Source: Elusimicrobiota bacterium (lineage in GTDB: Bacteria; Elusimicrobiota; Elusimicrobia; UBA1565; UBA9628). From it: a stretch of DNA of 50,845 nt. A program made the translations under genes and the position numbers. The stretch lies in assembly GCA_023700845.1 (NCBI GenBank), contig JAMPYD010000001.1:1-50845 (forward strand). The letters run 5' to 3'. The notes under the pieces were generated by a model. The model was not told the origin of the DNA. It was given only the letters and a program-made list of their open reading frames with translations, and ran no database searches. Below are positions 14,505 through 34,649 of this stretch, in pieces; position 1 is the first letter of the stretch, and every line of letters begins with the position of its first letter.

Positions 14505-14547
14505 TTCTGGAGAGGTGGGTGAGCGGCTGAAACCGACGGTTTGCTAA
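14505..14547 (+). repeat. attL: 43-nt exact direct repeat, 5' half of tRNA-Ser
   Basis: ttctggagaggtgggtgagcggctgaaaccgacggtttgctaa is identical to 34556-34598. Confidence 0.9.
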
Positions 14548-14556
14548 TCTCTCCGA
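14509..14556 (+). pseudogene. tRNA-Ser(GCT) remnant: positions 1-39 joined directly to an acceptor 3'-strand-like tctctccga
   Basis: The remnant is identical to the intact tRNA from the 5' end into the anticodon loop (..TTGCTAA). The next 9 nt match the tRNA 3' end, cctctccga, at 8 of 9 positions. It therefore looks like the tRNA with its anticodon 3' stem, variable arm and T arm deleted. Confidence 0.7.
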
Positions 14557-14729
14557 CGACGCCAGGTAGCTCCCTCCTGGTCGACTTCTGCTGTAAAATC
14601 CTACCTCTCGTTTGCGCTTGGTTGCCGTTGGCGGAGCGACTTTTGCTCAAAACCCGCTGAAAAGCCGTCTTCGGGGATTGACCGATCCTCGACGGAAATG
14701 CTTACATCTCTTACCCGGACACAGACCAA

Positions 14730-14760
14730 CCCTCGTCGGCAACGGCGGGGGCTTTTTTTT
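14730..14760 (+). terminator. rho-independent terminator
   Basis: ccctcgtcg-GCAA-cggcggggg forms a 9-bp stem (two G-U pairs) with a GNRA loop, followed by c and T8. Confidence 0.55.
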
Positions 14761-14840
14761 GCCCGGGTCACGTCTGCCCCGGGCCTAACGATCGGCCCGG
14801 CTCGCCCGTCCCCTACCCGAGGCAGCGCCGAGAGGAACCT

Positions 14841-15845
14841 ATGGCAACTGAAGCACAAGTGAAGGCGCTCCGCGATCACACCGACAAGGCACTGGCCGTC
14901 TACCAGAAGGACTTGGTCAAGCGCTCGCAGTGGGGCGAGATCACGTTCGAGAAGGCCGAGGCCGATCTCGTGCGCGCCCAGGAACTCCTCACCTACCTCA
15001 AGGAGCTTCCGCTGGACGTGCTGCCCGACGGCGTCATCAACAGCACCAACACGGCCGTCCAACAACTGATCCCGATCCTCACCAGGATCGACACCTTCAC
15101 GCTGAACACCGGCAACCCCGCCGCGCAGCGTGACGACATCGCGACCCAGTTTCACGGCCAGGTCGACTCCGTTTACAATACCGTCGGCGTCTGGATTCCG
15201 TTCTTGGCCTACAAGAAGGGAGACATCGCCGAGAACGTCGGCAGGCTGAGCCAAGCCGTCGCCGAAGCGAAGGCCACTCTGGAGGAGGCCAAGCAGACCA
15301 CCGAGGCCAAGAAGATCGAGATCGACTCCATCGTCGCCGCCGCCAGGGCCGCGTCGGCGTCTGCTGGGGCCGCCGTCTTCACCGAGGACTTCTTGAAGGA
15401 GTCTAGTACCCAGGAAAAGCTGGCCAAGAATTGGCTCATAGCCGCCGGTGTCATAGGCGTGCTCGGAATCGTAGCGGCAAGCGCCATGTGGTTGGTCGCC
15501 TACAAATCGCAGACCCTGGAGACATCTCAACTCGTGCAGGTCATCGCGGCCAAGCTCGTGATCTTGAGCATCCTGATCGGCGCGGCCTCCTGGTGTGGCG
15601 GCATCTACAAGGCCCTACGCCACCAGACCAGCATGAACAAGCACCGCGCCTTGAGCCTGCGAACGCTCCAAGCGTTCGTTAAGGCCGGAAGCGACGACCA
15701 AACGAAGAACGCGGTCCTCATGGAGGCTTGCCGCGCGGTCTTCTTGGGCGGCAACACCGGCTACCTCGACGGCAAAGGCGGCGGGATGGACGAGTCGAGC
15801 CTGAAGGTCATCGAGATCGCCAAGACCTTGAGCGGGAAATCCTAA
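14841..15845 (+). CDS. hypothetical 2-TM membrane protein (helical N-terminal region of about 195 aa, two TM helices, C-terminal tail)
   Basis: 334 aa. RBS gagagga precedes the ATG. TM helices are NWLIAAGVIGVLGIVAASAMWLVAY and LVQVIAAKLVILSILIGAASWCGGIY. I recognise no family. Confidence 0.7.
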   Translation: MATEAQVKALRDHTDKALAVYQKDLVKRSQWGEITFEKAEADLVRAQELLTYLKELPLDVLPDGVINSTNTAVQQLIPILTRIDTFTLNTGNPAAQRDDIATQFHGQVDSVYNTVGVWIPFLAYKKGDIAENVGRLSQAVAEAKATLEEAKQTTEAKKIEIDSIVAAARAASASAGAAVFTEDFLKESSTQEKLAKNWLIAAGVIGVLGIVAASAMWLVAYKSQTLETSQLVQVIAAKLVILSILIGAASWCGGIYKALRHQTSMNKHRALSLRTLQAFVKAGSDDQTKNAVLMEACRAVFLGGNTGYLDGKGGGMDESSLKVIEIAKTLSGKS

Positions 15846-15865
15846 CACTGACTGGAGAACAGACC

Positions 15866-16162
15866 ATGGCCAGCTATTTCTACGACAAGCACGTCCCCGA
15901 CGGCGGTGACCCCGCCAATAAGACCGGGACGGCTCCCGGTTTCCGCTTCTGTGTCTGCGAGCAGGACGCCGCGATCGGCATCGAGATGGATATGATTGAG
16001 GAGAGCCGGTCAGCGACCATCAACCCCAAGACGCACTACTCTGCGCTGATCAACATCAAAGAAGCCAAGCAACTTCTCGCTGGTCTCCAACAGGCCATCG
16101 ACCGCGCGGCGAGCAAGACCGGCGGAAAGGACCTCCACGAAGACCGCGTCCGCGATCTCTAA
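15866..16162 (+). CDS. hypothetical small acidic protein (98 aa)
   Basis: The ATG at 15866 is preceded by GGAGAA. The longer track ORF from 15728 overlaps the previous gene. Sequence begins MASYFYDKHVPDGGDP... Confidence 0.5.
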   Translation: MASYFYDKHVPDGGDPANKTGTAPGFRFCVCEQDAAIGIEMDMIEESRSATINPKTHYSALINIKEAKQLLAGLQQAIDRAASKTGGKDLHEDRVRDL

Positions 16163-16167
16163 CTACT

Positions 16168-16473
16168 ATGACGATCTCTGAACTCTACAGGAAGTGCGGC
16201 GTCTTCATCGGCAACACTACGGTCGTGAACCCGATCGGGGCTGACGCCCCACCGTCGATGCGGGCGATGTCCGAGAGCATGGACCGGGAATCCCTCAAGG
16301 ACATCGCATCTTGGGAAGTTCCCGACGAAGCCGCCTCTGACGAAGACCTCACGAAGCTCTTGACTGACGCGAAGGGGCTGGCCGCCAAGGGCCTGGCGCA
16401 GAAAGAACAAGTCTGCTCGACGGTGGCCGATCTCAGGAAGTACCTGAGTGGACACTACCCGGTCTCCGAATGA
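16168..16473 (+). CDS. hypothetical small acidic protein (101 aa)
   Basis: The ORF starts 5 nt after the previous stop. It is rich in Asp and Glu. I recognise no family. Confidence 0.5.
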   Translation: MTISELYRKCGVFIGNTTVVNPIGADAPPSMRAMSESMDRESLKDIASWEVPDEAASDEDLTKLLTDAKGLAAKGLAQKEQVCSTVADLRKYLSGHYPVSE

Positions 16474-17329
16474 GCCCCCGGCTGAAAACGGAATCCATCT
16501 GATCAAGTTCTACACGGGCCAAGGAGCAGGGGGTTTCGAGCGCGTCCGGCAGCCCTATACGGCCAAGGAGTGGGAGAAAATTAGGGGGTCTGCGCTCCGC
16601 CTTCTCCAGGCGCGGCAACGCGACGCCGCCGCCGAACTGTTCGAGGCCATCCCGTTTCAGTTGTATGAAGGGACCAATTTTTTTGGAGACGAGTTCCAGG
16701 TGCTCTACTGCGCCGTAAATCACGAACGATACGTTGAACTATCCGAACTTGCAGGAGACGAGGAGACCTCCGGTTCGATCAGGGCGATCGTGAAAGCTCT
16801 CGATGAGATTGGACATTCCGTAAGGCACGTCGCAGTCGGCGTAGACTCGAACTCCGGCCCAGCCCCAGTCGCACTGCCCGACCCAAAGGTCACCTCGGAC
16901 ACGGTGGCGCGCGCCCTTGCCGACGCTGAGCGGTTGATAAACTCAAACGGCGGCGCCATCAGCGCAGTCGATCGGGTTCACACGGCGCTTCATGGCTACC
17001 TGAGAGAGGTGTGCCGCGACGGTAAAATCGACTTCGCCGACGACGCGGGAACGACCGCCCTATTCGGACTCCTCCGCCAGCATCACCCGGCCCTTTCTGG
17101 GACCATCCCTAGCGGCGAGCCAATCCATCGGTTACTTCGGCCTCTGGCGGGAGTCATCGATACGCTTGACCCAGTGAGAAATACGCGGAGCATGGCTCAT
17201 CCGAACGCGACTTTATTGGGGGAGCCAGAGGCGATGCTGGTTATCAATGCGATCCGCACTCTTTTTCATTACCTCGACAGCAAGCTGAGTGAATCCCGAG
17301 CGAAGAGAACCGGGAAGCTCCCGTTCTAG
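16448..17329 (+). CDS. Abi_C / AbiJ-like HEPN-domain protein
   Basis: 293 aa. The C-terminus reads LDPVRNTRSMAHPNATLLGEPEAMLVINAIRTLFHYL, which fits the Rx4-6H motif and the helical context of the Abi_C (PF14355-type) HEPN domain. The start (GTG at 16448) is uncertain. Confidence 0.72.
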   Translation: MDTTRSPNEPPAENGIHLIKFYTGQGAGGFERVRQPYTAKEWEKIRGSALRLLQARQRDAAAELFEAIPFQLYEGTNFFGDEFQVLYCAVNHERYVELSELAGDEETSGSIRAIVKALDEIGHSVRHVAVGVDSNSGPAPVALPDPKVTSDTVARALADAERLINSNGGAISAVDRVHTALHGYLREVCRDGKIDFADDAGTTALFGLLRQHHPALSGTIPSGEPIHRLLRPLAGVIDTLDPVRNTRSMAHPNATLLGEPEAMLVINAIRTLFHYLDSKLSESRAKRTGKLPF

Positions 17330-18165
17330 TGGCAGAACCTGGAATGACCGACAAGAAGCCCGTGGCCAAAGCCCCTACGAAGATCGCTTTGGATTTGCTG
17401 GCCAATGCGAAGGACTCTCTGGCTCACGCGGTCTCCCATCTAACGGACGGTGGCGACCCTTCGGCCGGTCGGTGGAAGATCGCCATCAGGGAAGTAGCCC
17501 ACGTCATCGAACTTCTATTGAAAGAGAGGTTGAGGCGAGCCCACCCGGCCTTGATTTGGGTGAAGGTCGATGAGTTCCCGTCCTTAGATGCGCGCACGGT
17601 GGGCACCGCCCTCGCGGCCTCGCGGCTCGCCAAAATGTGCGGCATCTCGTTTCCCAAGGATGCCTTGGATACTCTTGACGCCTGTCGAAAGCAGCGGAAT
17701 AAAATTGAGCACTACGAGTTTCACGTCGAAGAGGCGGAAGCGCGTGGGATCGTGGGGCGGATGTTGGCGTTCATCTTTACTTTCTCCAGGCTCCACCTTG
17801 AGATCGACCTTGAAGCGGAGTTCCGCAAAGACAAAAGCTGGGAATCCCTTATCGACCTGGTCGAATTTCGAGAAGCACAGGCCAAGGCGATCGCGAAGAA
17901 GTTTTCCGAAGATGGAACAGAATCCACAGACTGTGAGTCTTGCGGTGAGCCGACTTTCGACATCGGGGCTGAACAATGTGAATTATGCGGCCACCGAGAT
18001 GAACTCGTTGACTGCGATCAGTGCGGGCAATCAATCTGGGCCTCGGATTCGGAATCCTTCGACGGCCCCGAGTCTGAAGAAACATCAGTAGTGTGCGGTA
18101 GCTGTGTTAGGAAGGCAGAGGCTGCTGATTTCCTGTATGACCAGTGGAAGGACCAGCAAGGATGA
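17329..18165 (+). CDS. HEPN-domain protein with C-terminal zinc-ribbon region
   Basis: 278 aa. It has LDACRKQRNKIEHYEF (Rx4H) in a helical N-terminal domain. The C-terminus has four Cys pairs: CESCG, CELCG, CDQCG and CGSC. The start is either the GTG at 17329 overlapping the previous stop or the ATG at 17344. Confidence 0.68.
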   Translation: MAEPGMTDKKPVAKAPTKIALDLLANAKDSLAHAVSHLTDGGDPSAGRWKIAIREVAHVIELLLKERLRRAHPALIWVKVDEFPSLDARTVGTALAASRLAKMCGISFPKDALDTLDACRKQRNKIEHYEFHVEEAEARGIVGRMLAFIFTFSRLHLEIDLEAEFRKDKSWESLIDLVEFREAQAKAIAKKFSEDGTESTDCESCGEPTFDIGAEQCELCGHRDELVDCDQCGQSIWASDSESFDGPESEETSVVCGSCVRKAEAADFLYDQWKDQQG

Positions 18166-18229
18166 AACAACCACGCCTGGATGGCGTACGGGAGCGACAC
18201 AGTAGCTGCCTCCCGCTATAATTTCGACC

Positions 18230-18907
18230 ATGCGAATCTCCCCCGAGGTGTTGAAGGGCCCGAGCCCAGAGGTCGACGACTCCTGGCGCCTTTTCCTCGA
18301 CCCGGCAGAACTCAGGACCAATCTGATCACGGCGTCGATTTACATCGCCGGGTTCGAGACGTTGAAATCGACGATCACCGGGCGCATCAGGGATTTTTTC
18401 TGGACCGGCTGGGACCACAAGACCGGCGACATCGTCAGCGAGAGCTACAACACCAAGGTCCTCGACCTCGATCCGAAGCGCAGGGTCTACGAAGCCTCGC
18501 TCGCCTGGCTGAAGCAGATGTCCGTGATCGACGACGCCGACTTGGCTAAGCTCAAGGTGGTGACGGACCTCCGCAACGAGATGGCCCACAAGATGGTCTC
18601 GATCGCGTCCGAGGGAGTGCCCGCGCACTGCGAGCAACGCCTCGGCGACATGATCCGCTTACTGCACAAGATCGAGGTCTGGTGGATCAGGAACGTGGAG
18701 ATGGAAATCAACCCGGACTTCTGCGACCCCGCCGCCAAGGACGAGGACATGCACCCTGGCAGCGTCATCACGCTCCAGATGATGACGCAGATCGCGCTTG
18801 GCACCGAGGACGAGGCTCGTGAGCCCCTCGCCGAATACATCAAGCGGTATGGCCCAGCCGCGAGCAAGTCGAAATGGCCTGGCACCGACGCGCCTCCAGA
18901 GCTATAA
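18230..18907 (+). CDS. HEPN-domain protein (third in a row)
   Basis: 225 aa. It has LKVVTDLRNEMAHKMV (Rx4H) in helical context. It shows no obvious similarity to the two preceding HEPN proteins outside the motif. Confidence 0.62.
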   Translation: MRISPEVLKGPSPEVDDSWRLFLDPAELRTNLITASIYIAGFETLKSTITGRIRDFFWTGWDHKTGDIVSESYNTKVLDLDPKRRVYEASLAWLKQMSVIDDADLAKLKVVTDLRNEMAHKMVSIASEGVPAHCEQRLGDMIRLLHKIEVWWIRNVEMEINPDFCDPAAKDEDMHPGSVITLQMMTQIALGTEDEAREPLAEYIKRYGPAASKSKWPGTDAPPEL

Positions 18908-18963
18908 TCTGATTGCCCGGCTCACCCGGGCGCGACGGACTTAGAAACTGGCCGCGCTAATGC

Positions 18964-18999
18964 GGGCCGCCTTGATGGTCAAGGCGGCCCGTTTGCTTT
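18964..18999 (+). terminator. rho-independent terminator of the HEPN operon
   Basis: GGGCCGCCTTGA-tgg-TCAAGGCGGCCC forms a 12-bp perfect stem followed by GTTTGCTTT. Confidence 0.65.
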
Positions 19000-19697: not shown

Positions 19698-20627
19698 CTA
19701 CAGGTTGGCGGCCACGATCCGCGCCACCTCCCCGGCCAAGTCCTGCCGGTTGTCATCGTAGACGTTGAGAACGCGAAGGTCGCGATGGCGGGAGAAGCGC
19801 TGGACCTTCCTCACGTCGCCGCCCAGCAGGTCCAGCGCCTCGGTGATGGCCAGATGCCGCACGCCATGCGGTCGGCCGAGGCCAAGGCCCCGGGTCAACC
19901 GGTAGACACTGGTTCCCGTCAGCCTCGCGCCCTTACCGGCCCGATCGAAGTTCGTGAACAGCGGCCCCGGCGCCGTGCCACGCGCCGCGATCCAGGCCGT
20001 GAGCACGCCTGCGGTCTCGTCCGGGAGAGTGAGCGTCATGCGGGTCGTCCGGCCTTTACCCTTGATGGAGAGCGTACCGGCCTCCAGGGCAACGTGGGCT
20101 AGGTCCAGGGACACGACCTCACCCCGGCGCAGCCCAAGGTCGTGCAGCAGCCGTAGGATCGCCAGGTCTCGCCGGGCCTTGCCGTCCCCACACTGTTTCA
20201 GGTCATGTAGTACCTTCTTAAGCGTGCCTCGCGCGGGTCCACGGAGGTCGCGATCGTGCTCGACCTTCAGGTTCTGGACCTCCAAGTTCCAGACTACGAT
20301 CCCGAGTGTGCGCGCCAGCTTCACCATCGCCCTCAACGCCGCCAGGCGCCGGTTGATCGTCGACGCCTGCAAGCCGCGCTCGACCAGGTTAGCCTTATAA
20401 CCCAAGGCCAGCGCGTTTGCGTCGCCCGGCGCTAGGGACAGCAGCCCACGCGCCGCGTCATCAACGTCGCTCGACCGGGTGAAGGTCGAGAAGTCGTTCA
20501 AGTCCTGTCTGTAGGCCCGGATCGTCAGCGCGTTGCGGCCCGAGAGGAACGCCTGGATGAGGGCTGCGATCTTCTGCTTCACAAGCCTCGATGGAATTTG
20601 AGGGTGGACGATGATGACCTTGCTCAT
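19698..20627 (-). CDS. tyrosine recombinase (XerC/D-like), second recombinase of the island
   Basis: 309 aa. It has an N-terminal SAM-like domain (LSGRNALTIRAYRQDLNDF) and catalytic residues in LGLRRGEV (R), HGVRHLAIT (HxxR) and SRHRDLRVLNVYDD (H..Y). Confidence 0.85.
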   Translation of the reverse strand: MSKVIIVHPQIPSRLVKQKIAALIQAFLSGRNALTIRAYRQDLNDFSTFTRSSDVDDAARGLLSLAPGDANALALGYKANLVERGLQASTINRRLAALRAMVKLARTLGIVVWNLEVQNLKVEHDRDLRGPARGTLKKVLHDLKQCGDGKARRDLAILRLLHDLGLRRGEVVSLDLAHVALEAGTLSIKGKGRTTRMTLTLPDETAGVLTAWIAARGTAPGPLFTNFDRAGKGARLTGTSVYRLTRGLGLGRPHGVRHLAITEALDLLGGDVRKVQRFSRHRDLRVLNVYDDNRQDLAGEVARIVAANL

Positions 20628-22450: not shown

Positions 22451-22506
22451 AATTACGACCTACCTGAGTATAGCCAGAATCGCCGTTTCCGCAAGGGGAT
22501 AGACGC

Positions 22507-23376: not shown

Positions 23377-23384
23377 TGAATCCC

Positions 23385-25240: not shown

Positions 25241-27559
25241 TTAGGAGACGTTTACGGGTACGAGCGTCATCGTGTCGTTGCCGAAGATGTCGATGACCTT
25301 GACGGCCACGGTGTAGCGGCCGGGCTTAGGGTAGACGTGAGCGGCCGAGGTCAGTTCGAGATCACGATCCTGCCGCGTGCGGAAGGACTGCCATTCGTTC
25401 TCGAAGATGTAGGCGCCGGTCCAGCGCTCCTCGAACTCGATGAACTCCTCGCCCGCGACCACGGTGCCGGGAAGCTCGCCCTCGACGCCCATCGTCTTGG
25501 GCATCTTCACGATTTCCTTGCGGCTCTCGTAGTTAAAGTCCACGGCCCAGTAATCCACCCAGTCGGTCCACTTCTTGGTCAGAACATTTCGGGTGACCAC
25601 GCCATTTTTATCCTTGCTGATCTTGATGAGCTTGCCGCCGTCGCAGATGACCTCGCTCTTGCCTTCCTTCAACTCTGCGGCTACAGAGTCGACCAGGCCC
25701 TGCGTGTAGTAGACGGAGAAGTCGGCCAACTCGATGGTGACGCGCCGCTTCTCCGTCTTGTCGTAGCGGGGCGTGGCCTCGATGTAACTCACGTCGTGGA
25801 AGCGCACCTGCCCCTTCTCTACGGCGCGCTTGTCGAAGACCTCAGGCGGGATCGTCTTCGGCGCGATGTCGATGCCCTTCTGCTTGGCCTCTTCCAGCAC
25901 AGCGGGGAACAGACCCATCTCGAACTCGAAGGCGAGGATGTCCGCGCGCGAGGCTCGGCGCTTGCGGCACTCGGTGATGACCTCCTCGACGAAGAGGCGT
26001 CCGACCGGAAGATTGATGGGGCCGACCACGACCAGGCGGCCCGCGTGCTTGCCGTGGAAGAACCCGTTGTTCTCCATCGGCTCGGCCCCGTAGGCGCGGA
26101 GGATCAGGTCGCGGAACTCGTGCTCCTTTTTCGCCAAGGCGTCGGCCTTCTTCTTCGCTGAGAGGCGGCTGGAGACGTTGAGATATGCCTGGCGCTCATA
26201 GCGGCCGAGGTTCAAGACCTCGAACGCGCGGAACGGCTTCCCGCTACTTTTCAATTCGCGCTGCACTCCAATAAGCCGCTTCCGCGCAGTGTGGACACCA
26301 AACTTCCCCAGGTCAGTCGTGATCCACTTCCTTCCAAGTTTCTCTGCGACGGCTGCGGTTGTGCCGGAGCCGCAGAAGAAATCTGCCACCAGGTCGCCCT
26401 CGTTGCTGCTGGCCTTGATAATCCGTTCGAGCAGGCTCTCCGGTTTTTGTGTCGGGTAATCCAGACGCTCAGCCCCAGAGCGGGTCATCCGCACATCTGG
26501 CCAGATCGACTGGCAAGGCTTCCCGGGGCTTTCGTCCAAATACTGCTTGAGATATGGGAAGCCTGTTGACGAAAAGTAGATTCTTTTTTCCTTCAACAAC
26601 CGGTCGATGCCGTCCTGGTCGAAGGCCCAGTGTCTTCCCTTGGGTGGAGAAATTGTTTTTTCTCCGATTTTCCTGGCCGGACCTGTGCCCCCGGCCGTAA
26701 GCGTGTTCGGCCAAAACCGGCGTCCGCTGCCCTCCTCGACCATGCCGAATCGCTCTTCAATATACTCAACGTCGTAGGCCATGTAGATCGGGTTGTAGGT
26801 CCACGAATCTGTTTTTGTGTAGAAGAGGATGTTGTCGTGGACGATCCCGTATTTGTTGGGATCGTTGTGCGCCCCGTGGCGTTGCCAGACAATATCATTG
26901 CGAAAATTATCAAACGAAAAGACTTCATCCATAACCGACCGGACAAGGTGGCTGACGTTCGGACCCATGTGAACGTAGATGCTGCCATCCTTCGCCAAGA
27001 GATCGCGCATCAAAATCAATCGTTCGTAAAGCATCGAAACGAATGAGTCTGCGCCACGCCCCCAAGTATCACGATACGCGATCTGTTCCAGCAGGTTCGG
27101 TTCCTTGTGGAACGTCTCGCCGCCAACTTCTATGTCCATGGAGAAGTCAGCGCCCACGTCGAAGGGCGGGTCGATGTAAATTAGCTTGAGGCCACCCGCC
27201 GACTCAATCTGCTCGCGTAGCGTGCCCGCCCGCAGGGACGACAGAATAAGTTTGTTGTCTCCCCAAATCAACTTGTTCGTCCAGCCGGTGACCTGGCGCC
27301 CGCCACCATCAAGGGCAAGCTCGTCATCCTCATGCTTTTCTTTACGCGGTTCGTCGATATGTTCAAGGGTTTGGAAGGGCAGGACCACGTTAGTGACCTC
27401 ACGCGACTTCCCGTTCCAGACCAACTCGACCTCACGCTTGTCCTCAAACAAGATGAAGCGGTATTTCTCGGGTAGAGGCTTGCCCTCGTTGATGAGTTTG
27501 ACGAGGTCGCGCTTCTCGGCGTCAGTCAACTCGTAGGCGTCGGTCTGGGCTCTGGCCAT
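25241..27559 (-). CDS. mod: Type III-like DNA methyltransferase (Mod, beta-class N6A/N4C MTase) with a long C-terminal extension
   Basis: 772 aa. Motif IV LIYIDPPFDVG precedes motif I DFFCGSGTTAAVAEKLGRKW. The final 300 aa or so are extra and end in a PKD/Ig-like stretch, HVYPKPGRYTVAVKVIDIFGNDTMTLVPVNV. Confidence 0.88.
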   Translation of the reverse strand: MARAQTDAYELTDAEKRDLVKLINEGKPLPEKYRFILFEDKREVELVWNGKSREVTNVVLPFQTLEHIDEPRKEKHEDDELALDGGGRQVTGWTNKLIWGDNKLILSSLRAGTLREQIESAGGLKLIYIDPPFDVGADFSMDIEVGGETFHKEPNLLEQIAYRDTWGRGADSFVSMLYERLILMRDLLAKDGSIYVHMGPNVSHLVRSVMDEVFSFDNFRNDIVWQRHGAHNDPNKYGIVHDNILFYTKTDSWTYNPIYMAYDVEYIEERFGMVEEGSGRRFWPNTLTAGGTGPARKIGEKTISPPKGRHWAFDQDGIDRLLKEKRIYFSSTGFPYLKQYLDESPGKPCQSIWPDVRMTRSGAERLDYPTQKPESLLERIIKASSNEGDLVADFFCGSGTTAAVAEKLGRKWITTDLGKFGVHTARKRLIGVQRELKSSGKPFRAFEVLNLGRYERQAYLNVSSRLSAKKKADALAKKEHEFRDLILRAYGAEPMENNGFFHGKHAGRLVVVGPINLPVGRLFVEEVITECRKRRASRADILAFEFEMGLFPAVLEEAKQKGIDIAPKTIPPEVFDKRAVEKGQVRFHDVSYIEATPRYDKTEKRRVTIELADFSVYYTQGLVDSVAAELKEGKSEVICDGGKLIKISKDKNGVVTRNVLTKKWTDWVDYWAVDFNYESRKEIVKMPKTMGVEGELPGTVVAGEEFIEFEERWTGAYIFENEWQSFRTRQDRDLELTSAAHVYPKPGRYTVAVKVIDIFGNDTMTLVPVNVS

Positions 27560-27561
27560 GG

Positions 27562-30279
27562 TCAGGTGGTCTGGTATTGCTGGAAGCTCGCGGCAAGCGC
27601 GGCGAAGGTCGTCGGCGGGTGCTGGATGAACCCGGCCTGGTCTACGTAAAGGTGCTTGTAGCTAACGCGGCCATTCTCGGCGCTGGCGATGGTGGCATCG
27701 GCGCACCACTGCCCGAGGCGGGCCATCTTCTGCGGCAAGTCCAGTTCCTCGCGGCCCTTAGTCTCGATGATCCAGACCGTGCCGTCGGCCGTGCGGACGA
27801 TGAAGTCGGGGGTGTAGGTCGAGAGGTCGCCGTTCTCGCGGACGTAGTCGAGCTTGAAGCCGACGGCGAAGTAGTTCTTGGCGAAGGCCGCCACGTCCGA
27901 CGCCGCCTCCAGGAACGCGGCGAACGACAACTCGAAGCCGCCGGAGCGCGGCTCGCCGACGGTCTTGCTGAAGATCGACTTCTTCGCAGCCAGGAAGGGC
28001 CGGTGCTCGGTGCGGAAGGGGCGGGTCTGCCGCAACTTGATTGTGTCCTCGATCCGGGTCGTGCCCGTCTCCTGGATCGTCAGCGCGTTCATAGCCGTCT
28101 TGAACGAGTCGTAGAGGACCTTGCCTACCTCAGGCTCGGACAAATTGCGGAGGACGACCGGGTCCTCCAGGTCCACGGGCGACTTCGTAAACAGGTGCTC
28201 GCGGACGAAGGTCTTGACCTTGCCGTAGAGCACGTCGTAGCCGCCGACGAGGCGCAGGTCCTGGAGCAACTGACGGGCGAAGAAGGCGATCACCGACCGG
28301 TAGTCGCCGGGGCCGGAGCCGTCGAGCACGATCGTGTGATGGACCTCGGCGTTGAGCATCGTCTTGAACACGATCTCGCGCGTCTCTTCGGGTGTGAAGG
28401 GCTTGAGCGGCAGCTTCTTGTTGCCGAGGGCCGCCGGGTCCAGGGCGTCGAGGTTCTTGTAGTCTCGATTGTAACGGCGGGTGAGCTTGGGGAGAGGGAT
28501 GTCGAGCTTGTCCAGGTCCTTCTCGGGGTTCTGGGCGTCGACCTCGACTACGAGAGAGTCCTTGCGCGTGGTCCCGGCGCCCATGGGGACGTGCTCGAAG
28601 GTCACGCCCTCGGACTGGATCGACTCGACGAACTCCATGAAGGCGGGCGTGCCCATAACGGAGACTGTCTCGCTGATGTCGGTCCCGAAATACATGCGGC
28701 GCAGACCTCGGCCAAGCGTCTGCTCAGGGAGGATGTTGCTCTGCGCGGCATAGGCGCGCAAGCCGACGATCGTGGTCACGTTGCGAACGTCCCAGCCTTC
28801 TTTCAGGACCAGGACGGAGACGATCGCCTTGCACGGGCTCTTCAAGCTGTCGATCGCGTTAGCGGCCTCACGGAGAACTTCCAACTCCTCCTTGCTCTTG
28901 CCCGAGGCGGCCTCGGAGATTTCGCCGTTGTTCTTCGTGTGGATCACGAGGACACCGTCCTTCAACTCGGGACAAATCTTCTGGAGGTATTCACCGACAT
29001 CGTCGCAGTTCTTCGTGTCGTCGACCATGACGAAGAGCACAGCCTTCTTCCCCAGCTTCTCGTGCTCGGCGTAGCTCTTCTTCCATTCCTCGACGCCGAG
29101 CGCGAGGTAGTCGGCGTAGCGCTCGCTGAAGACCGCGCTCTTGCGTTCGGCGAGCTTGGCGCGGCTGGCGGCGTCAGGCAGGATAGGGTGCTTCACGACG
29201 TTCTGGTGGATCGCCTCGACCAGCGGGTAGTCCGACACCGTCTGGACGAAGATGCTGCCGTTGTCGTGGCGGGGCGTGGCCGTCACGTCAAGCTGGAGTG
29301 CGAGGCGGCGATCCTTCTGGAGCATCCGGTTGTGGATGTCCTGGATCGACTTGAACCAGGCCATGCGCTCATCGTGGATGTGGTGCGCCTCGTCGTTGAA
29401 GACGGCGAGTTCGGTCACTTCGCGCACGATCTCACCCAGGTCGGTCTGGCTGTCTCTCGTCTTGCCCACCGGCTTGGCGCCGAACGGCGAGAGGAAGTAA
29501 TCGCGCAGGTCTCCGTCCTCCAGCGACGGCTCGGGCACGTCGCCGAGGTAGACGCGGTGGATGTTCGTCAGGAAGATATTGCCGGTCTCGCGGATGACGC
29601 GCACGTCGTCCTGGATGTGGAGCGTGAACTGAAAATCGTCTCGCCAGTTGCGTCCGTCGTGGCCGTTATCCGGCAGGATGGGATCGTTGAAGAAAATCTT
29701 GAGGCCGTCGAAGTCCGTCCGCAGCCGGTCGAGGACGATGATGTTCGGCGCGATGACGAGGAAGTTTCTCGACAGGTTGGAGTCGGCCTCGTAGACCTTG
29801 TGAAAGTAGCTCCAGGCGATGAGCAGGGACATGACCTTGGTCTTACCTGAACCCGTCGCCATCTTCAGGACGTAGCGCGGCCAGTCCTCGGTGAACATTC
29901 CGGCCGAGACCGCGCCGGAGGCATCGAAGCGCAGGAGATCGAACTTGTCCTTCACGCGCTTCACGTCGTGCAACCATATCACCGTCTCGACCGCCTCGCG
30001 CTGGGCGAAGTAGTAACGGAAGGGCGAGAGCGTTCCATCCTTACCCTCGGTCATGTGCTCGGTGTCGAACCACCACTTCAACAGCGCGATTGACGTGCGC
30101 GATGCGCCCGCGTATCCGGCGGCTCGCCAAGCGTGGACCTCGCGGCGGATGTTGGCCACCAGCGGCGGCAGCAACTTGTCGTATGCAGTCGCGCGCAGCG
30201 TCTCGTCGGCCGGGAACCACCGCTGCTCGGGGATGAGCGGCGCGTAGGGGGACGACGGAAATTCTGGGTGCAACGCCAT
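27562..30279 (-). CDS. res: Type III restriction enzyme Res subunit (SF2 helicase plus PD-(D/E)xK nuclease)
   Basis: 905 aa. Helicase motifs are MATGSGKTKV (I), FNDEAHH (II) and QTLGRGLR (VI). The C-terminal nuclease reads YTPDFIVRTADGTVWIIETKG. Confidence 0.9.
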   Translation of the reverse strand: MALHPEFPSSPYAPLIPEQRWFPADETLRATAYDKLLPPLVANIRREVHAWRAAGYAGASRTSIALLKWWFDTEHMTEGKDGTLSPFRYYFAQREAVETVIWLHDVKRVKDKFDLLRFDASGAVSAGMFTEDWPRYVLKMATGSGKTKVMSLLIAWSYFHKVYEADSNLSRNFLVIAPNIIVLDRLRTDFDGLKIFFNDPILPDNGHDGRNWRDDFQFTLHIQDDVRVIRETGNIFLTNIHRVYLGDVPEPSLEDGDLRDYFLSPFGAKPVGKTRDSQTDLGEIVREVTELAVFNDEAHHIHDERMAWFKSIQDIHNRMLQKDRRLALQLDVTATPRHDNGSIFVQTVSDYPLVEAIHQNVVKHPILPDAASRAKLAERKSAVFSERYADYLALGVEEWKKSYAEHEKLGKKAVLFVMVDDTKNCDDVGEYLQKICPELKDGVLVIHTKNNGEISEAASGKSKEELEVLREAANAIDSLKSPCKAIVSVLVLKEGWDVRNVTTIVGLRAYAAQSNILPEQTLGRGLRRMYFGTDISETVSVMGTPAFMEFVESIQSEGVTFEHVPMGAGTTRKDSLVVEVDAQNPEKDLDKLDIPLPKLTRRYNRDYKNLDALDPAALGNKKLPLKPFTPEETREIVFKTMLNAEVHHTIVLDGSGPGDYRSVIAFFARQLLQDLRLVGGYDVLYGKVKTFVREHLFTKSPVDLEDPVVLRNLSEPEVGKVLYDSFKTAMNALTIQETGTTRIEDTIKLRQTRPFRTEHRPFLAAKKSIFSKTVGEPRSGGFELSFAAFLEAASDVAAFAKNYFAVGFKLDYVRENGDLSTYTPDFIVRTADGTVWIIETKGREELDLPQKMARLGQWCADATIASAENGRVSYKHLYVDQAGFIQHPPTTFAALAASFQQYQTT

Positions 30280-30364
30280 GATTACAGAGTCTACACATTT
30301 CGTTCATACCGTGTTAGCGAGTTATAATAACAGCATCAACAAGTGCTTATTTTTACATCACTTA

Positions 30365-30393
30365 TTGACATAGACGCTGGTTCATGCTAAGAT
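30365..30393 (+). promoter_or_regulatory. sigma-70-like promoter TTGACA-17-TAAGAT in an AT-rich divergent region
   Basis: TTGACA is at 30365-30370 and TAAGAT at 30388-30393. It faces the replication module. The region 30280-30400 is the most AT-rich stretch of the window and also contains GTTAT-A-ATAAC at 30321-30331. Confidence 0.35.
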
Positions 30394-30587
30394 TTTGATG
30401 GCTGAAGTTGAAGTACAGAGAGCCGACCGGCGACAGGCTCTGGCCCAAACGTCGCCCTTCGACTGGGTTCCTCACCTGGCCGACTGACATCAAGACAGTC
30501 TCGGCGCGATGCCGAGACACGACGCACCCCGGAAGTTGCTGTGGCCTTGGTCGTGGTCAAGGTCGGGCGCTTCCCTGGAGAGTCCCG

Positions 30588-30845
30588 ATGTCAGAGCCGC
30601 AATACACGACCTTCGAGTTCGCGTTGGCTGCGTTCGCCCTAAGCGATCCCCGCGTCCAGCTAATCGCCACGCGGTCCGTCACCGCAACGCGCGTCGAGTT
30701 CGTGCTGGGGCCCCGGCCGGTCTGCGAGACCTTGGCCGATCTTTTCCTTAGAGACCAGGCTCTGGTCAATCCCCGAGTCTACGCCGACAAGTCGCGCCTC
30801 TTGAAGACGGCGCTGCACTGCGCCCGGCGGGAGTATCAAGCGTGA
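30588..30845 (+). CDS. DUF5659-like small protein
   Basis: The ATG at 30588 is preceded by GGAGAG. YTTFEFALAAFALSDPRVQLIATRSVTATRVEFVLG...LFLRDQALVNPRVYADKSRLLKTAL resembles DUF5659 proteins of phages and plasmids. The track start at 30408 is probably upstream read-through. Confidence 0.5.
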   Translation: MSEPQYTTFEFALAAFALSDPRVQLIATRSVTATRVEFVLGPRPVCETLADLFLRDQALVNPRVYADKSRLLKTALHCARREYQA

Positions 30846-30866
30846 TCACCGCCCGCCGTTCGCTGA

Positions 30867-31757
30867 TTGCCGACGGTCCCATCCTCGTCGTCCCCGATGC
30901 CAGATGTCGCTATGTCGACCCCACTACCCCACGATCCTGATCACGCCGCTGGCCTGACCAGCGCGGGCGGTTCCCCGACCCCGGGGTCCGCCTTGTTGCC
31001 TTATAACACTCCGTCTTACACACACCAGCCATTTCTCCCTGACGAGCAGAAGCCCAACTACACGATCGCCAAGGCCCTGGAGATGTTCCATGCCTCACTG
31101 GCCACCAGGGTCTTGAACTGCTGGCAGGCTCCCTACTTCAGGCCATGCAAGCAGCCGCGCCTGTGCTCGGGCTGCGCGCGCTACCGCCAACGCCTCCAGG
31201 TAGGGAAGCATGAGCGCTACTTGGCCAAGATGGGCACGCCGTACTTCATGACGCTGACAGTCCGGTGCAAGAGCGGCCTTACCCGCTGGCACCTGGACAG
31301 ATTCCGCAAGAAGATGACCAGCTTGCGCCGCTGGAGACGGTTCCAGCGCTCGGTCCGGGGCGGCGTCTATGCGATCGAGGTCAAACTCGGCGACTCCGGC
31401 CTCTGGAACATCCACGCGCACGTCATCCTCGACCTCGCCGACCACACGCTGGCCAAACCGGCCATGCGGGCGGCCTGGAAGCGGCGGACGGGAGGCAGCC
31501 ACATCGACTTCGAGCCGATCCAGGCCGGGACCTTGGCCTGGGTCTTCAGTTACTCGACGAAGCCCCAGGAGCTTCCGGAGGCCAAGTCGATCGGCCAGGC
31601 GGTTCACGCGCTGGTCGGACAGAAGACCCCGCCGCTCGATTCCGACCGTCTGCGCGAGTTCTACTGGGCGACGAAGGGGTTTCGGAACACGCAGACGTTC
31701 GGCAACTTCAACGCGGGCAGCGGCGTTATGCCTGGCCTCCGCCGGACGCGAATCTAA
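30867..31757 (+). CDS. rep: HUH rolling-circle replication initiator (Rep_2 / pC194-pUB110 type, as in RepSA of pSAM2)
   Basis: Motif 1 is YFMTLTVR, motif 2 (HUH) is WNIHAHVILD and motif 3 is FSYSTKPQE (catalytic Tyr). The start is uncertain: TTG at 30867 or ATG at 30897. Confidence 0.75.
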   Translation: MPTVPSSSSPMPDVAMSTPLPHDPDHAAGLTSAGGSPTPGSALLPYNTPSYTHQPFLPDEQKPNYTIAKALEMFHASLATRVLNCWQAPYFRPCKQPRLCSGCARYRQRLQVGKHERYLAKMGTPYFMTLTVRCKSGLTRWHLDRFRKKMTSLRRWRRFQRSVRGGVYAIEVKLGDSGLWNIHAHVILDLADHTLAKPAMRAAWKRRTGGSHIDFEPIQAGTLAWVFSYSTKPQELPEAKSIGQAVHALVGQKTPPLDSDRLREFYWATKGFRNTQTFGNFNAGSGVMPGLRRTRI

Positions 31758-31769
31758 CAGGAGACAGAG

Positions 31770-32447
31770 ATGAACACGACGATGCCAGCAGAATTTATAA
31801 GGTTGAACCGGGACCTGTGGATCAACGCCGTGCCGATCCCGAAGCGACCAGAGGTCTCCGTATTCTTGGCGGCCGCGCAGGACATGATCAGCGGTTTGAC
31901 GGTGCCGCGCCCCTCCGCCAGGTCCTGGCGATACGGCTCAATCCCGCAATTCGTCCTCACAGAGGGGAAGGCTTTCTCCGCCGAACCATTCACCGACGCC
32001 GAAATGCGGATACTCCAGTCGCTCGCCGGGCTTGATCTCCGCTATTTGCGCCCGACTCTGTGCTTCCGCAACGCCTACATGGTATCGCGGAATATCCCGG
32101 AGCTTCACTATGTCGAAGGGCTGGTCAACTACCACGGCTGCCTGCTTCTACACGCCTGGCTCGACCTCAATGGAAAGCCGATCGACGTGACTTATTCCAC
32201 GGACTTCACGATGGTCCCATGTCGGAACATCGCCCAGATGATCCGGCGGATCGACGACAATCGCCAGACCTTCCGGTACTACGGCATCGAGTTCTCTGGC
32301 GCCGAGGTGACTCGGCACGTCCTCGGCCGTAAGACTTACGACTCGATCATCGACTGCGTGGCCTGCAACCATTCTTTCCTGCGCCGGGGCCTCGGCGCGA
32401 TCGCCGTCGGCGATCATACCGCCCGCGTGGCTCCATGCACTTGGTAG
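31770..32447 (+). CDS. hypothetical protein with a transglutaminase-like Cys-His-Asp pattern (tentative)
   Basis: 225 aa. PTLCFRNAYMVSRNIPELHYVEGLV...LLLHAWLDLNGKPIDVTYS resembles the C...HAW...D core of transglutaminase-like or papain-fold enzymes. Assignment is by eye only. Confidence 0.5.
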   Translation: MNTTMPAEFIRLNRDLWINAVPIPKRPEVSVFLAAAQDMISGLTVPRPSARSWRYGSIPQFVLTEGKAFSAEPFTDAEMRILQSLAGLDLRYLRPTLCFRNAYMVSRNIPELHYVEGLVNYHGCLLLHAWLDLNGKPIDVTYSTDFTMVPCRNIAQMIRRIDDNRQTFRYYGIEFSGAEVTRHVLGRKTYDSIIDCVACNHSFLRRGLGAIAVGDHTARVAPCTW

Positions 32448-32620
32448 TCGGCACTGGAAGTCGGGGGCCACCGCAAGAGCGGCCCTAGAAGCGCCGCACT
32501 AACCTACACACGGGACGTTGCCGCCACCGACCAGGAGGGCAAGGCCGCGACCGTAGAGCGCCGCAAGGCGCTGCGAGGGCGAGAAAATGAGTGAAGAAAT
32601 CTACTACGTCGGTGACGCGA

Positions 32621-32776
32621 TCAGCGCTTCTTGTCGGCAGCCTGTCTCAAGATGAAAATGATCTGGCGGCTCATGGACCGGCCGTCGCGCTCGGCCATGG
32701 TGACCAGGGCGGCGTGGAGGTCGAGGGGAATCCTCAAGCCGAGGTGCTTGATGGGGGTCGGGGTCTTCTTAGCCAT
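32621..32776 (-). CDS. ribbon-helix-helix (Arc/CopG-type) DNA-binding protein, 51 aa, below the ORF-track length cutoff
   Basis: My translation is MAKKTPTPIKHLGLRIPLDLHAALVTMAERDGRSMSRQIIFILRQAADKKR. It shows the classic RHH pattern (beta strand LGLRIP, then helix-helix with GRSMSRQI). It is divergent from xis-int. No clear RBS is present. Confidence 0.6.
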   Translation of the reverse strand: MAKKTPTPIKHLGLRIPLDLHAALVTMAERDGRSMSRQIIFILRQAADKKR

Positions 32777-32808
32777 GATCCGAGCATAACGGAATTGCTT
32801 GACGGGGG

Positions 32809-32853
32809 CAAGTCCAAAGTGGACTTGACTGCACCAGACGAGCCTGTTACACT
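32809..32853 (+). promoter_or_regulatory. palindromic operator overlapping a TTGACT-17-TACACT promoter for xis-int
   Basis: CAAGTCCA-aag-TGGACTTG is at 32809-32827 and overlaps the -35 TTGACT (32825-32830). The -10 TACACT is at 32848-32853 and the first in-frame ATG at 32858, which suggests a leaderless transcript. Confidence 0.35.
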
Positions 32854-32857
32854 GTCG

Positions 32858-33247
32858 ATGGACTCAAAATGCACTAACTCCGGTTCGTCACAAGACCCCT
32901 CGACGCCCGCGCCGGTCGCCACCGATAACGCCGTGTCCGTGTTAGCTACGACGCTTCAGAGCGGGACCTACCGACTGGTCGTTCGCGATGGGAAGATCGT
33001 GGCGCTGTCCGAGGGGGGGTGCAACTCGGTGTACATGACCATGGAGCAGATCGCCGAGGAGTTTCCGGTCTCGTACTTCTGGGTTTCCCGGAACTGGCTC
33101 GTGACCCTGCGCCTGCCCGTCTACAAGCTGGGCAAGAAGACCAACATCTTCAAGCGCGAAGAACTCTACGCCGCTATCGAGCGGACGCGGGTCCTTCCTG
33201 GCCGCCCCGTGGGCAGAGCGAAGAAGACGATCGGGGTGCTCTCATGA
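32858..33247 (+). CDS. xis: excisionase-like HTH protein (Xis)
   Basis: The C-terminus MTMEQIAEEFPVSYFWVSRNWLVTLRLPVYKLGKKTNIFKREELYAAIE fits excisionase/MerR-type HTH proteins. The stop overlaps the int ATG (ATGA). The start is uncertain (32858 or 33035). The track start at 32591 overlaps the RHH gene on the other strand. Confidence 0.55.
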   Translation: MDSKCTNSGSSQDPSTPAPVATDNAVSVLATTLQSGTYRLVVRDGKIVALSEGGCNSVYMTMEQIAEEFPVSYFWVSRNWLVTLRLPVYKLGKKTNIFKREELYAAIERTRVLPGRPVGRAKKTIGVLS

Positions 33248-34386
33248 GCAACCAAAAGGGTCACCCGCTCAAAGCCGTACGTCTCGATCGAGAAAGAATC
33301 CGACTGGACTTCACCCACGGAGGACGCCGCGTGCGCGGCGAGGTTAGGGCCGAGGCCCTGGCCGCGCTGATTCTAGGGGAAATCGATTCCGACTCGAATC
33401 TGGTTTTCGGGGAGGCGCCGATCACGCTGACCGACTTCGTGAACCAGGTCTACATCCCGTTCGACGCGACGCCGCGCCTCCTGAACGTGCGCTCATTGAA
33501 GGCGGAGGTCGACATCGTGAAACCCTGGCTGACCAAGCTCGGGAAAATGATGCTGCATGAAATTCAGGGCAAGGACGCTGAACGCTGCAAGGATGAGTGG
33601 ATCACGCAGGGCCTGGCTGGAAACACGATCAAGCGGCGTTGGGACGCACTCGGCCGCGTATTAGACTGTGGGAAAACCAAGGGACGGATCAAAAACCGGA
33701 TTCTCGGTAAGCCTAGCGGCCTGGCGCTCGCGAACAGAAGCGGCATCTGGCTCAAGCTGTCCGAGATCGATCCTATCCTAGCCGAGTGCGAGAAAGTGCA
33801 TCGAAAGCTCCGGCCCCTGATCGAGTTCCTGATCTTGACCGGTGCTCGGATCGGAGAGGCTCAGCTACTGGTCAACGGAGACATCCGCAACGGTACACTG
33901 TGGCTGCCCACGGAGAAGCAGGGTTGCCCGCCCAGGGACGCGACGAGGCCCTTGGACATCAAGAGCCTCGGGCCCAGGTTCGCCGCGCTTCTGCCGAAGT
34001 TGAAGCCGCACCCTGTCAGCGGCCTCTACTTCTACGCCAACGACGCGAAGCTGACTGCCATCACCGAAAGCTACGCGATCAGCTTGTTCCAGAAGGCGTT
34101 GGCCGCCGTCGGGAGGATCGACTTCACCTTACATGACTGCCGGGGCACGTTCGCCACGCACAGGGCGATGGTAGTGAACAGCTTCCGTCAGCTTCAGGCT
34201 GAACTCGGTCATGGAAATCAAAAATCCATCACCGCATACTTGGCCCGTGCAAGACAATTCGATCGACGCGAGTCGATCTTCTACTCCCCGCCTCGTCAAC
34301 GGCGCAGTCCCGGGCGCCCACAAATCGTGCCTCCCGGTCTAACCGTGAACGAGGGGCACGTCCCGCCGCCGCCGTTGCATAGCTAA
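33244..34386 (+). CDS. int: tyrosine integrase
   Basis: 380 aa from the ATG at 33244. Catalytic residues are in LILTGARIGEA (R), LHDCRGTFATH (HxxR) and LGHGNQKSITAYL (H..Y). It ends 173 nt before the tRNA. Confidence 0.88.
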   Translation: MSNQKGHPLKAVRLDRERIRLDFTHGGRRVRGEVRAEALAALILGEIDSDSNLVFGEAPITLTDFVNQVYIPFDATPRLLNVRSLKAEVDIVKPWLTKLGKMMLHEIQGKDAERCKDEWITQGLAGNTIKRRWDALGRVLDCGKTKGRIKNRILGKPSGLALANRSGIWLKLSEIDPILAECEKVHRKLRPLIEFLILTGARIGEAQLLVNGDIRNGTLWLPTEKQGCPPRDATRPLDIKSLGPRFAALLPKLKPHPVSGLYFYANDAKLTAITESYAISLFQKALAAVGRIDFTLHDCRGTFATHRAMVVNSFRQLQAELGHGNQKSITAYLARARQFDRRESIFYSPPRQRRSPGRPQIVPPGLTVNEGHVPPPPLHS

Positions 34387-34507
34387 GAGCCTATGCCCAC
34401 GTCAGCGCGTTGCCCATCTGGAGCGCGCTGGCGTGCGGCAGGATCGCAGCCAGGCCCCTATCGATCCCGCGCAAAACCCGCAGAAATTCTCATCTCCGAC
34501 GGGCGCG

Positions 34508-34537
34508 TTGCGCGGGGGGGAAATAAAAAGTTACGAT
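34508..34537 (+). promoter_or_regulatory. candidate element-borne promoter for the restored tRNA-Ser (TTGCGC-18-TACGAT)
   Basis: The -10 ends 22 nt before the tRNA 5' end and lies in island DNA just inside attR. Confidence 0.3.
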
Positions 34538-34555
34538 GTTCTCAGCAGTTTCCCT

Positions 34556-34598
34556 TTCTGGAGAGGTGGGTGAGCGGCTGAAACCGACGGTTTGCTAA
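34556..34598 (+). repeat. attR: 43-nt exact direct repeat, 5' half of tRNA-Ser
   Basis: Identical to 14505-14547. Confidence 0.9.
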
Positions 34599-34649
34599 AC
34601 CGTTCTAGGGCGTAAAGCCTTAGCGAGGGTTCGAATCCCTCCCTCTCCG
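34560..34649 (+). tRNA. tRNA-Ser (anticodon GCT), class II with long variable arm; no encoded CCA
   Basis: Folded by hand. The acceptor stem is GGAGAGG/CCTCTCC with discriminator G. The anticodon stem is ACGGT/ACCGT with loop TT-GCT-AA. There is a long variable arm. The T arm is GAGGG-TTCGAAT-CCCTC. Confidence 0.9.

Follow-up and report, generated by a model that had tools for sequence, protein, structure and literature searches.

Can an integrative element take over the promoter and 5′ half of a bacterial tRNA gene, leaving only the 3′ half to the chromosome? The question is raised by the tRNA-Ser(GCT) locus of an Elusimicrobiota bacterium (contig JAMPYD010000001.1), of which 50,845 nt were analysed; this whole stretch is referred to here as the window. 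The initial annotation of the window, made from the sequence by itself, described a 20-kb integrative element lying between a partial and a complete copy of the tRNA gene. The analysis reported here indicates that the region from 14548 to 34555 is very probably a site-specific integrative element in tRNA-Ser(GCT), with a rep-xis-int backbone and defence cargo, and that it has taken over the gene's promoter and 5′ half.

Results

Boundaries of the element

A single tRNA gene was found in the window, tRNA-Ser(GCT) on the + strand, called at 34559-34650 by ARAGORN and at 34560-34649 with 59.1 bits by Rfam. The start of this gene is present twice. Positions 14505-14547 and 34556-34598, both on the + strand, form an exact direct repeat (43/43 nt), which a repeat finder reported as a pair of 47 nt with 46 identical positions (98%; 14501-14547 and 34552-34598). 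Chance cannot explain a 43-nt exact match in 51 kb. The repeated block consists of a 4-nt leader (TTCT) followed by tRNA nt 1-39, just as the initial annotation had proposed, and the displaced nt 1-39 of the left copy occupy 14509-14547. When the cloverleaf was read by hand, the anticodon stem was ACGGT/ACCGT and the loop TTGCTAA, and the identity was found to stop at the last nucleotide of this 7-nt loop, that is, at its 3′ edge. The earlier description of a block covering the tRNA's 5′ half therefore stands, but its placing of the end inside the anticodon loop does not.

Beyond the block, the tRNA continues at the right copy only. The left copy runs on as tctctccgacg, and neither ARAGORN nor Rfam calls a tRNA there, in agreement with the claim that only the right copy is complete. 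The two copies are hereafter called the attL and attR identity blocks. On this assignment the leader and nt 1-39 at attR would be supplied by the element, and the tRNA at 34560-34649 (+) would be a chimera of nt 1-39 from the element and nt 40-90 from the chromosome.

The stretch between the repeat copies, 14548-34555, measures 20,008 bp. Its G+C content is 0.605, compared with 0.709 in the left flank and 0.723 in the right flank, so that the lower interior G+C previously judged by eye is now a computed value. G+C at third codon positions (GC3) ranges from 0.56 to 0.90 for genes in the element and from 0.91 to 0.94 for those outside. Both G+C and GC3 shift at both repeat copies.

Empty sites and host flanks

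Comparison with related genomes showed what the locus looks like when it is uninterrupted. A match to the tRNA-Ser(GCT) query was present in 37 of the 38 genus genomes, several of which hold a full-length gene and no 5′-half fragment. In G001, G046, G002, G042 and G019, and on contig C471 from the same bin as the window, the gene is uninterrupted and has the native TGCTAGAAT promoter and a terminator. The native extended −10 motif (T)GTGCTAGAAT lies about 20 nt upstream of these genes, and the conserved terminator GACGGCCGGATCTC...GAGGTCCGGCCGTC lies 3′ of them. The window tRNA-Ser(GCT) does not differ from the genes of G001 and G046, both uninterrupted (100% identity).

In the window, these two signals are found at opposite ends of the 20-kb stretch. 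The native promoter motif, extended −10 TGCTAGAAT (14480-14488, +), is upstream of the fragment at attL, at a distance of 20 nt from the displaced tRNA nt 1, its function as a promoter being assigned from the relatives. The native terminator hairpin (34660-34691, +), conserved 3′ of tRNA-Ser in the relatives, is downstream of the intact gene in the chromosomal right flank. When 14380-14547 was joined to 34599-34720, the composite aligned over its full length with the uninterrupted loci. Relatives thus provide empty sites to which the joined flanks of the window correspond. The comparison was based on the right flank and on the 150 nt next to the promoter. Synteny of the left flank was also sought through the KaiC-like gene (window 12800-14504), and was set aside: matches in 40 relatives reached at most 65-70% identity and lay on other contigs.

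The uninterrupted gene on C471 (L017, 5169-5260) is a second tRNA-Ser(GCT) in the same bin, 95% identical to that of the window, with its own native promoter and terminator. It is the genus's other allele, and its variable arm shows compensatory changes. Since G019, a single-contig relative, has one tRNA-Ser(GCT) gene only, C471 was taken to come from a co-binned relative, and the bin probably mixes two related populations.

Two further features of the left flank were observed. The KaiC-like gene (11803-14445, −) encodes an 880-aa ATPase with several RecA/KaiC-type P-loop domains, for which the best DNA identity in the genus is 65-70%. A conserved motif, (a)agtctgctgagg(a/g)(c/a)gtgt(a/g)aa, precedes the native tRNA-Ser promoter by approximately 60-90 nt in three genomes with differing neighbour genes, at 14420-14445 in the window, at about 5055-5075 in L017 and at about 6960-6940 (−) in L016, a locus on contig C61 of G015.

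The same break in relatives and in tandem arrays

The arrangement seen in the window is complete on single contigs of two relatives, G015:C61 and G004:C129. Each shows the native promoter and a 5′ half ending TTGCTAA|tcc, then an insert, then element-type upstream DNA and an intact tRNA. The inserts are short (3.3-3.7 kb) and lack int; they carry a MazE/Doc toxin-antitoxin pair and a tetratricopeptide repeat (TPR) protein. A 477-aa open reading frame (ORF) in the 3.3-kb insert of G015 was considered as an integrase, and proved to be the TPR protein, leaving that insert without one. The window layout recurs on independent contigs of G015, G004, L083, L094 and L098.

More 5′-half fragments were found in G003, G016, G018, G021 (two in tandem), G015:C19 and G052, and a scan of metagenome contigs for the pattern of a 5′ half followed by T returned 16 contigs. 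Pooling of the genus genomes with these 16 metagenome contigs gave 23 distinct displaced 5′ halves, and every one of the 23 is broken at TTGCTAA|T. No displaced 3′ half was seen in the relatives and metagenomes. Partial matches to the 3′ side in the 38 genus genomes are 81-92% identical, include a few 19-nt exact stretches and recur in most genomes; they are presumably other tRNA genes.

The native promoter precedes only some of the fragments, while the rest are preceded by element-type upstream DNA. This identifies the latter as internal joints of tandem arrays. In L097, a left end homologous to that of the window element stands behind a different element, which points to the same type of element having inserted independently. 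The metagenome pattern scan yielded no circular contig. The joined flanks, the empty loci and the 23 junctions bear out the polarity first proposed for the window, in which the element supplies the 5′ half and the native promoter and 5′ half are stranded at attL. Each of the three outcomes that the initial annotation had named as refuting this reading (no empty site, a tRNA duplication, no break in composition) was contradicted by the data.

In L016 (− strand), two similar cassettes of a MazE/AbrB-type antitoxin and a Doc/Fic toxin were observed, at 6200-6900 and 5230-5860, both preceded by a similar operator-like cattataataaca. The int-less insert contains one of them, and the other separates a conserved gtctgctgagga motif from the native tRNA-Ser promoter.

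The integrase module and its family

The gene next to attR encodes a tyrosine integrase of 380 aa (33244-34386, +; Pfam PF00589, 36.4 bits against a cut-off of 27.1). Translation most likely starts at the ATG at 33244, which overlaps the xis stop, and a longer ORF from 33019 was set aside in favour of this start. In an alignment of 20 sequences with homologues, R202, K225, R300 and Y332 fall in invariant columns; H297 (HDCR) and H323 (ELGH), absent from the listed conserved columns, were recognized by eye in the translation. The int stop lies 173 nt before tRNA nt 1, as annotated initially, and 169 nt before the start of the identity block (34556).

Three further genes complete the backbone. 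A Xis-like small helix-turn-helix (HTH) protein of 70 aa (33035-33247, +) has a stop codon overlapping the int start (ATGA). Pfam gave no match for this ORF itself, which is 41% identical to the ORF preceding the tRNA-Cys integrase in L083, where a sub-threshold excisionase-type HTH_17 match was obtained (Pfam). From its position, we infer that it acts as the recombination directionality factor. A ribbon-helix-helix (Arc/CopG-like) regulator (32621-32776, −), with sub-threshold Pfam matches to both FitA-like_RHH and Arc, is divergent from xis-int. A rolling-circle-type replication initiator, Rep (30867-31757, +), was recognized by an HUH motif (HAHVIL) and a YSTK tyrosine read from the translation, with a weak Pfam match to REP_ORF2-G2P below the cut-off.

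About 25 integrase homologues were collected, mostly from Elusimicrobiota metagenome bins. In L018/G041, L019, L022, L023, G008 and L081, homologues with 37-74% identity directly precede tRNA-Ser(GCT) and point the same way, the contig of L081 ending within the tRNA 5′ half. The same geometry was found at a second tRNA. The L083 integrase (46% identity) is at tRNA-Cys(GCA), whose anticodon stem is likewise ACGGT/ACCGT, and a 41-nt exact repeat (1 nt plus tRNA-Cys nt 1-40) brackets a 6.2-kb element there. In L086 (49% identity), int (6215-7285) adjoins a displaced tRNA-Cys(GCA) 5′ half at 7458-7496 (−), in inverted orientation. As this int is beside the fragment and not the intact tRNA, it appears that int can sit on either arm.

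In a maximum-likelihood tree, the 5′-type elements fall into two well-supported clades, one of which is sister to a clade abutting the 3′ end of tRNA-Glu. The two 5′-type clades share a target tRNA and a break point. Distant relatives of the integrase (L021, L024, L025 and L084) adjoin the 3′ ends of tRNA-Glu or tRNA-Tyr. No flanking repeat was found within 10 kb of these four, so that their conventional polarity is assigned from adjacency only. No tRNA adjoins int in P0010/L087/L020 (49% identity), nor in the relatives linked to type IV secretion systems, L088, L089 and L091. The integrases of these last three (31-38% identity) stand at the end of rows of genes like those of conjugative elements, encoding TrbC, a TraC/VirB4-like ATPase, TrbI and SSB, which suggests that the family also serves elements resembling integrative and conjugative elements.

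A candidate promoter for the reconstituted tRNA

The int-proximal arm of attP (34387-34555, +), delimited by sequence and by the ends of relatives, contains a candidate element-borne promoter for the tRNA: TTGCGC (34508-34513), an 18-nt spacer and TACGAT (34532-34537), 22 nt before tRNA nt 1. For comparison, the native TAGAAT ends 20 nt before the tRNA. Element-type upstreams differ widely, and many share an A-tract followed by TAnnnT, for example AAAAAGTTACGAT, GAAAGCTATGAT and AAAAAGGTTAAAAT. Of 43 distinct element-type upstreams, 20 have the pattern AAA(A/G)G-N1-2-TAnnnT ending 22-26 nt before tRNA nt 1; shuffled sequences gave a mean of 0.24 and a maximum of 2. This contrast overstates the significance, because the motif was set after inspection of the data and the upstreams share ancestry. 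TTGnnn-N16-18-TAnnnT was found in 7 of the 43, with a mean of 1.1 in shuffles. On these comparative grounds, the element may supply the tRNA promoter.

The integration model and its alternatives

The geometry of the integration model was observed directly, and its chemistry is deduced. The integrase would have recombined attP with the anticodon stem-loop of the tRNA-Ser(GCT) gene, which is single-copy in one single-contig relative. On this model, attP would carry a promoter, the leader and tRNA nt 1-39. Strand exchange would occur within the shared block, most likely in the 7-nt loop TTGCTAA, given that the two copies cease to match precisely at its 3′ edge. The host promoter TGCTAGAAT and the host 5′ half would thereby be displaced 20 kb to attL. 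The working gene at attR would then be composed of the promoter, leader and nt 1-39 of the element, followed by chromosomal nt 40-90 and the terminator. The tRNA would be transcribed from element DNA, either from the candidate promoter TTGCGC-N18-TACGAT or by read-through from xis-int. New arrivals would insert at the intact gene, and tandem arrays would grow on its 5′ side.

Several points weigh against this model. The window comes from a metagenome bin of 2.7 Mb in 476 contigs (71% completeness, 4% contamination), in which it is contig C325. The empty sites all come from other species or from the co-binned contig (tRNA 95% identical), and none is isogenic. The KaiC-like gene of the left flank is poorly conserved in the genus (40 relatives), so that this flank cannot be matched gene for gene. 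The position of strand exchange was deduced from where the identity ends, and present-day mobility of the window element is at most putative. For the promoter, the post hoc motif and the shared descent of the upstream regions count here as well; in addition, the −35 of the window fits the E. coli consensus at three of six positions, and a strict sigma-70 scan called no promoter at either att site.

One may ask if the element is a fixed, immobile remnant of an ancient integration that had the same geometry. Decay is common at the site, as the int-less inserts of 3.3-3.7 kb with the same ends in G015 and G004 show. However, the repeat is still exact over 43 of 43 nt, the integrase is full length with the conserved catalytic positions present, and the Xis, ribbon-helix-helix regulator and Rep frames are open. 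The G+C content is still 10-12 points under that of the host, and a related element occurs in a different array context in L097. We consider it unlikely, if conceivable, that the element is such a remnant.

The second alternative concerns expression. The tRNA could be expressed by xis-int read-through, as proposed for pTN3-like archaeal elements, in which case the A-tract/TAnnnT would be an attP protein-binding site. Int and the tRNA point in one direction, the −35 fits poorly, and no terminator was predicted in the 173-nt gap between int and tRNA; together with the absence of a call for the candidate promoter, this leaves room for read-through. Under this reading, however, an essential tRNA would hang on the integrase promoter, which is usually kept low when integrated. 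Furthermore, in the int-less remnants of G015 and G004 the box has stayed at an unchanged distance from the only intact tRNA-Ser found there. The conserved positions of the hexamer, T1, A2 and T6, follow the pattern expected of a −10 box, and the 22-26 nt distance mirrors the native 20 nt. Read-through in place of an element promoter thus has a minor share of the probability. The initial proposal of an element-supplied promoter at 34508-34537 is upheld in so far as a −10-like box is kept at this distance in the relatives, and not in so far as the strict scan did not call it.

A contig misjoined through the 43-nt repeat was also considered, the window being a metagenome-bin contig whose bin holds a second tRNA-Ser allele on C471. 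Such an artefact is very improbable: the repeat is shorter than the k-mers or reads that normally resolve such joins, both junctions show exactly the expected structure, and the same layout occurs on the independent contigs named above. That the left copy is a relic or pseudogene of a tRNA duplication unrelated to the integrase, with the low-G+C block acquired otherwise, is scarcely credible: it has in its favour only the bare existence of a partial tRNA copy, and it is contradicted by the break at the same nucleotide in 23 junctions beside diverse element ends, by the position of the native promoter, which precedes the fragment instead of the intact gene, by the tie of the integrase family to tRNA-Ser(GCT) with related integrases in the same geometry, and by the shift in composition exactly at both copies.

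Ends of the element

The left non-coding end of the element (14548-14840, +), the P′ arm of attP under the integration model, has a homologous left end behind a displaced 5′ half in L097. In the window, TCTCCGACG at 14550-14558 and CAAAACCCGC at 14648-14657 recur in the int-proximal arm. The 9-10-mers common to both arms were rejected as an arm-site signal, being about as frequent as chance predicts, and count as candidate arm sites only.

Among relatives, 21 of the 23 junctions have a palindrome, TTCTCGACGAGAA, in the left arm, 38-61 nt from the break, and in 14 of them TTCTCCGTCGG stands exactly 20 nt ahead of it. The left-arm module of relatives takes the form of TTCTCCGTCGG, then exactly 9 nt, then TTCTCGACGAGAA, at 32-61 nt into the element, for example in L016 (− strand, 41-74 nt past the break), L076, L094, L100 and L106. 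This module is probably a binding site for Int/Xis or for a host factor. It does not occur within 100 nt of the break in the window-type arm (window and L097), where TCTCCGACG is at the break with a second copy in the int-proximal arm, a repeat near chance expectation. A palindrome resembling TTCTCGACGAGAA also abuts the tRNA 3′ end beside the distant integrase relatives L021 and L024.

Whether the left arm could be a decayed tRNA 3′ half was considered and rejected. An acceptor-like TTCTCC is fixed at 20 nt from the palindrome, but lies 32-41 nt from the loop, and this combination of a fixed distance to the palindrome with a variable distance to the loop fits protein-binding sites better than tRNA remnants. 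In the window, TCTCTCCGA directly after the displaced 5′ half (14548-14556) resembles the tRNA 3′ acceptor strand, and CCTACCTCTC (14600-14609) is complementary to tRNA nt 2-11, counting one G-U pair. The 5′ end of the attL transcript could pair with either. The RNA fold of attL is not unusually stable (z = −1.1). A terminator-like hairpin with a T-run (14730-14761, +; 9-pair stem with 7 G-C pairs and a T8 tail) lies between attL and the first cargo gene, and appears in this fold too. It would stop transcripts from the stranded native promoter.

Cargo genes

The cargo begins with an operon (14841-18907, +), characterized by domain and defence-system matches, which includes unknown proteins together with an Abi_C-domain protein (16448-17329, +), a PDC-S64/DUF3644/HEC-08-like protein (17329-18165, +) and a weak HepT-like protein (18230-18907, +). 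A second tyrosine recombinase, Xer-like and of 309 aa (19698-20627, −), matched Pfam Phage_integrase and Phage_int_SAM_1; every match to XerC, XerD and XerA in NCBIfam was below the cut-off. A type III restriction-modification pair occupies 25241-30279 (−), with Mod at 25241-27559 and Res at 27562-30279 (Pfam N6_N4_Mtase and ResIII), and was scored by PADLOC as MTase_III at 9e-111 and REase_III at 4e-18. The earlier list of Rep, Xis, Int, a second recombinase, a restriction-modification system and HEPN genes is thus confirmed, with the restriction-modification system now placed in type III and the HEPN-type genes identified as those for the Abi_C and PDC-S64 proteins. No transfer or phage structural genes were detected in the element with Pfam, PHROGs and NCBIfam.

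Discussion

The polarity of the window element, called uncommon in the initial annotation, is indeed so, but it has been catalogued before. In Islander, 3760 of 3919 islands carry a 3′ tDNA fragment and 159, or ∼4%, a 5′ fragment (PMC4383910). According to a review of archaeal recombinases, bacterial recombinant tRNA genes keep their original promoter with very few exceptions, whereas pTN3-like integrases use the tRNA 5′ half, with the tRNA expressed from the integrase promoter, a situation met 'seldom' in bacteria (PMC8371274). pTN3 itself has a 41-bp shared block, and its integration leaves the tRNA-Leu gene 'separated from its original promoter' (PMC5495485). The element described here is therefore a well-delimited addition to a known minority class, and its orientation in itself is not new.

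The 5′-fragment islands of Islander resemble the window element in having a tyrosine-integrase island between an intact tRNA gene and an upstream 5′ fragment in the same orientation (PMC4383910). In both, the crossover is centred on the anticodon region and tandem arrays occur. They differ in host, here an Elusimicrobiota bacterium known from a metagenome bin, and in regularity, as the 5′ orientation is found here in 23 of 23 junctions and in two integrase clades rather than sporadically.

With elements of the pTN3/TKV4 type from Thermococcales, which have SSV-type integrases, the window element shares the use of the tRNA 5′ half as attB, through a block of 43 bp that compares with 41 bp in pTN3. 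In both cases, the reconstituted tRNA is parted from its own promoter and would be transcribed from element DNA, as far as the window element can be judged by comparison. In pTN3, however, attP is inside int, which is split on integration, whereas here int is intact (33244-34386) and attP lies 173 nt downstream; the hosts are archaeal in the one case and bacterial in the other. No special relationship between the two integrases could be detected, NCBIfam giving only weak XerA/XerD matches for that of the window.

The pSAM2-like actinomycete integrative and conjugative elements are compact, with a rolling-circle (HUH) rep, xis and int beside a tRNA attachment site and crossover in the anticodon-loop region. 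The tRNA-Pro segment on pSAM2 is the 3′ one, beginning at the anticodon loop and running to the 3′ end. The window element has a like rep (HUH)-xis-int module beside its tRNA attachment site, but its attP carries the tRNA 5′ part, no Tra/FtsK-like or other transfer gene was found in it (Pfam, PHROGs and NCBIfam), and its host belongs to a different phylum. The integrases and islands specific for dusA likewise insert at the 5′ end of the target gene and restore that end, though their target is protein-coding and their integrase family a different one (PMC4482086). Since dusA islands and the window element both restore the 5′ end of a gene, they must also supply its expression signals.

The findings raise the possibility, which we put forward tentatively and do not favour over its negation, that the 5′ orientation is the obligate mode of an Elusimicrobiota integrase lineage. 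Each element would take over tRNA-Ser(GCT) or tRNA-Cys(GCA) with its own promoter, and successive elements would stack as tandem arrays of defence islands on the 5′ side, stabilized because loss of the promoter end would silence the tRNA. tRNA-Ser(GCT) is presumably essential. If the proposal is true, only precise excision or decay that preserves the ends would be tolerated, and this would explain why both ends are kept in the int-less remnants of G015 and G004.

To our knowledge, the host phylum is without cultured genetics. The locus is a clean example, from a bacterium, of the rarer way of entering tRNA genes, with promoter and 5′ half exchanged for those of the element, and it provides the exact att sequences for a new integrase/att pair. 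What the present work adds is the comparative picture: at this site and in this lineage, elements as a rule take the 5′ polarity, with defence islands in tandem arrays. The site at tRNA-Ser(GCT) is a hot spot of defence islands in Elusimicrobiota genomes. With all 23 junctions, two integrase clades and two tRNAs that have the same anticodon stem, it should be a good system for learning what sets the polarity of integration at a symmetric stem-loop. It also allows one to ask whether tying a presumably essential tRNA to an element promoter may stabilize the element.

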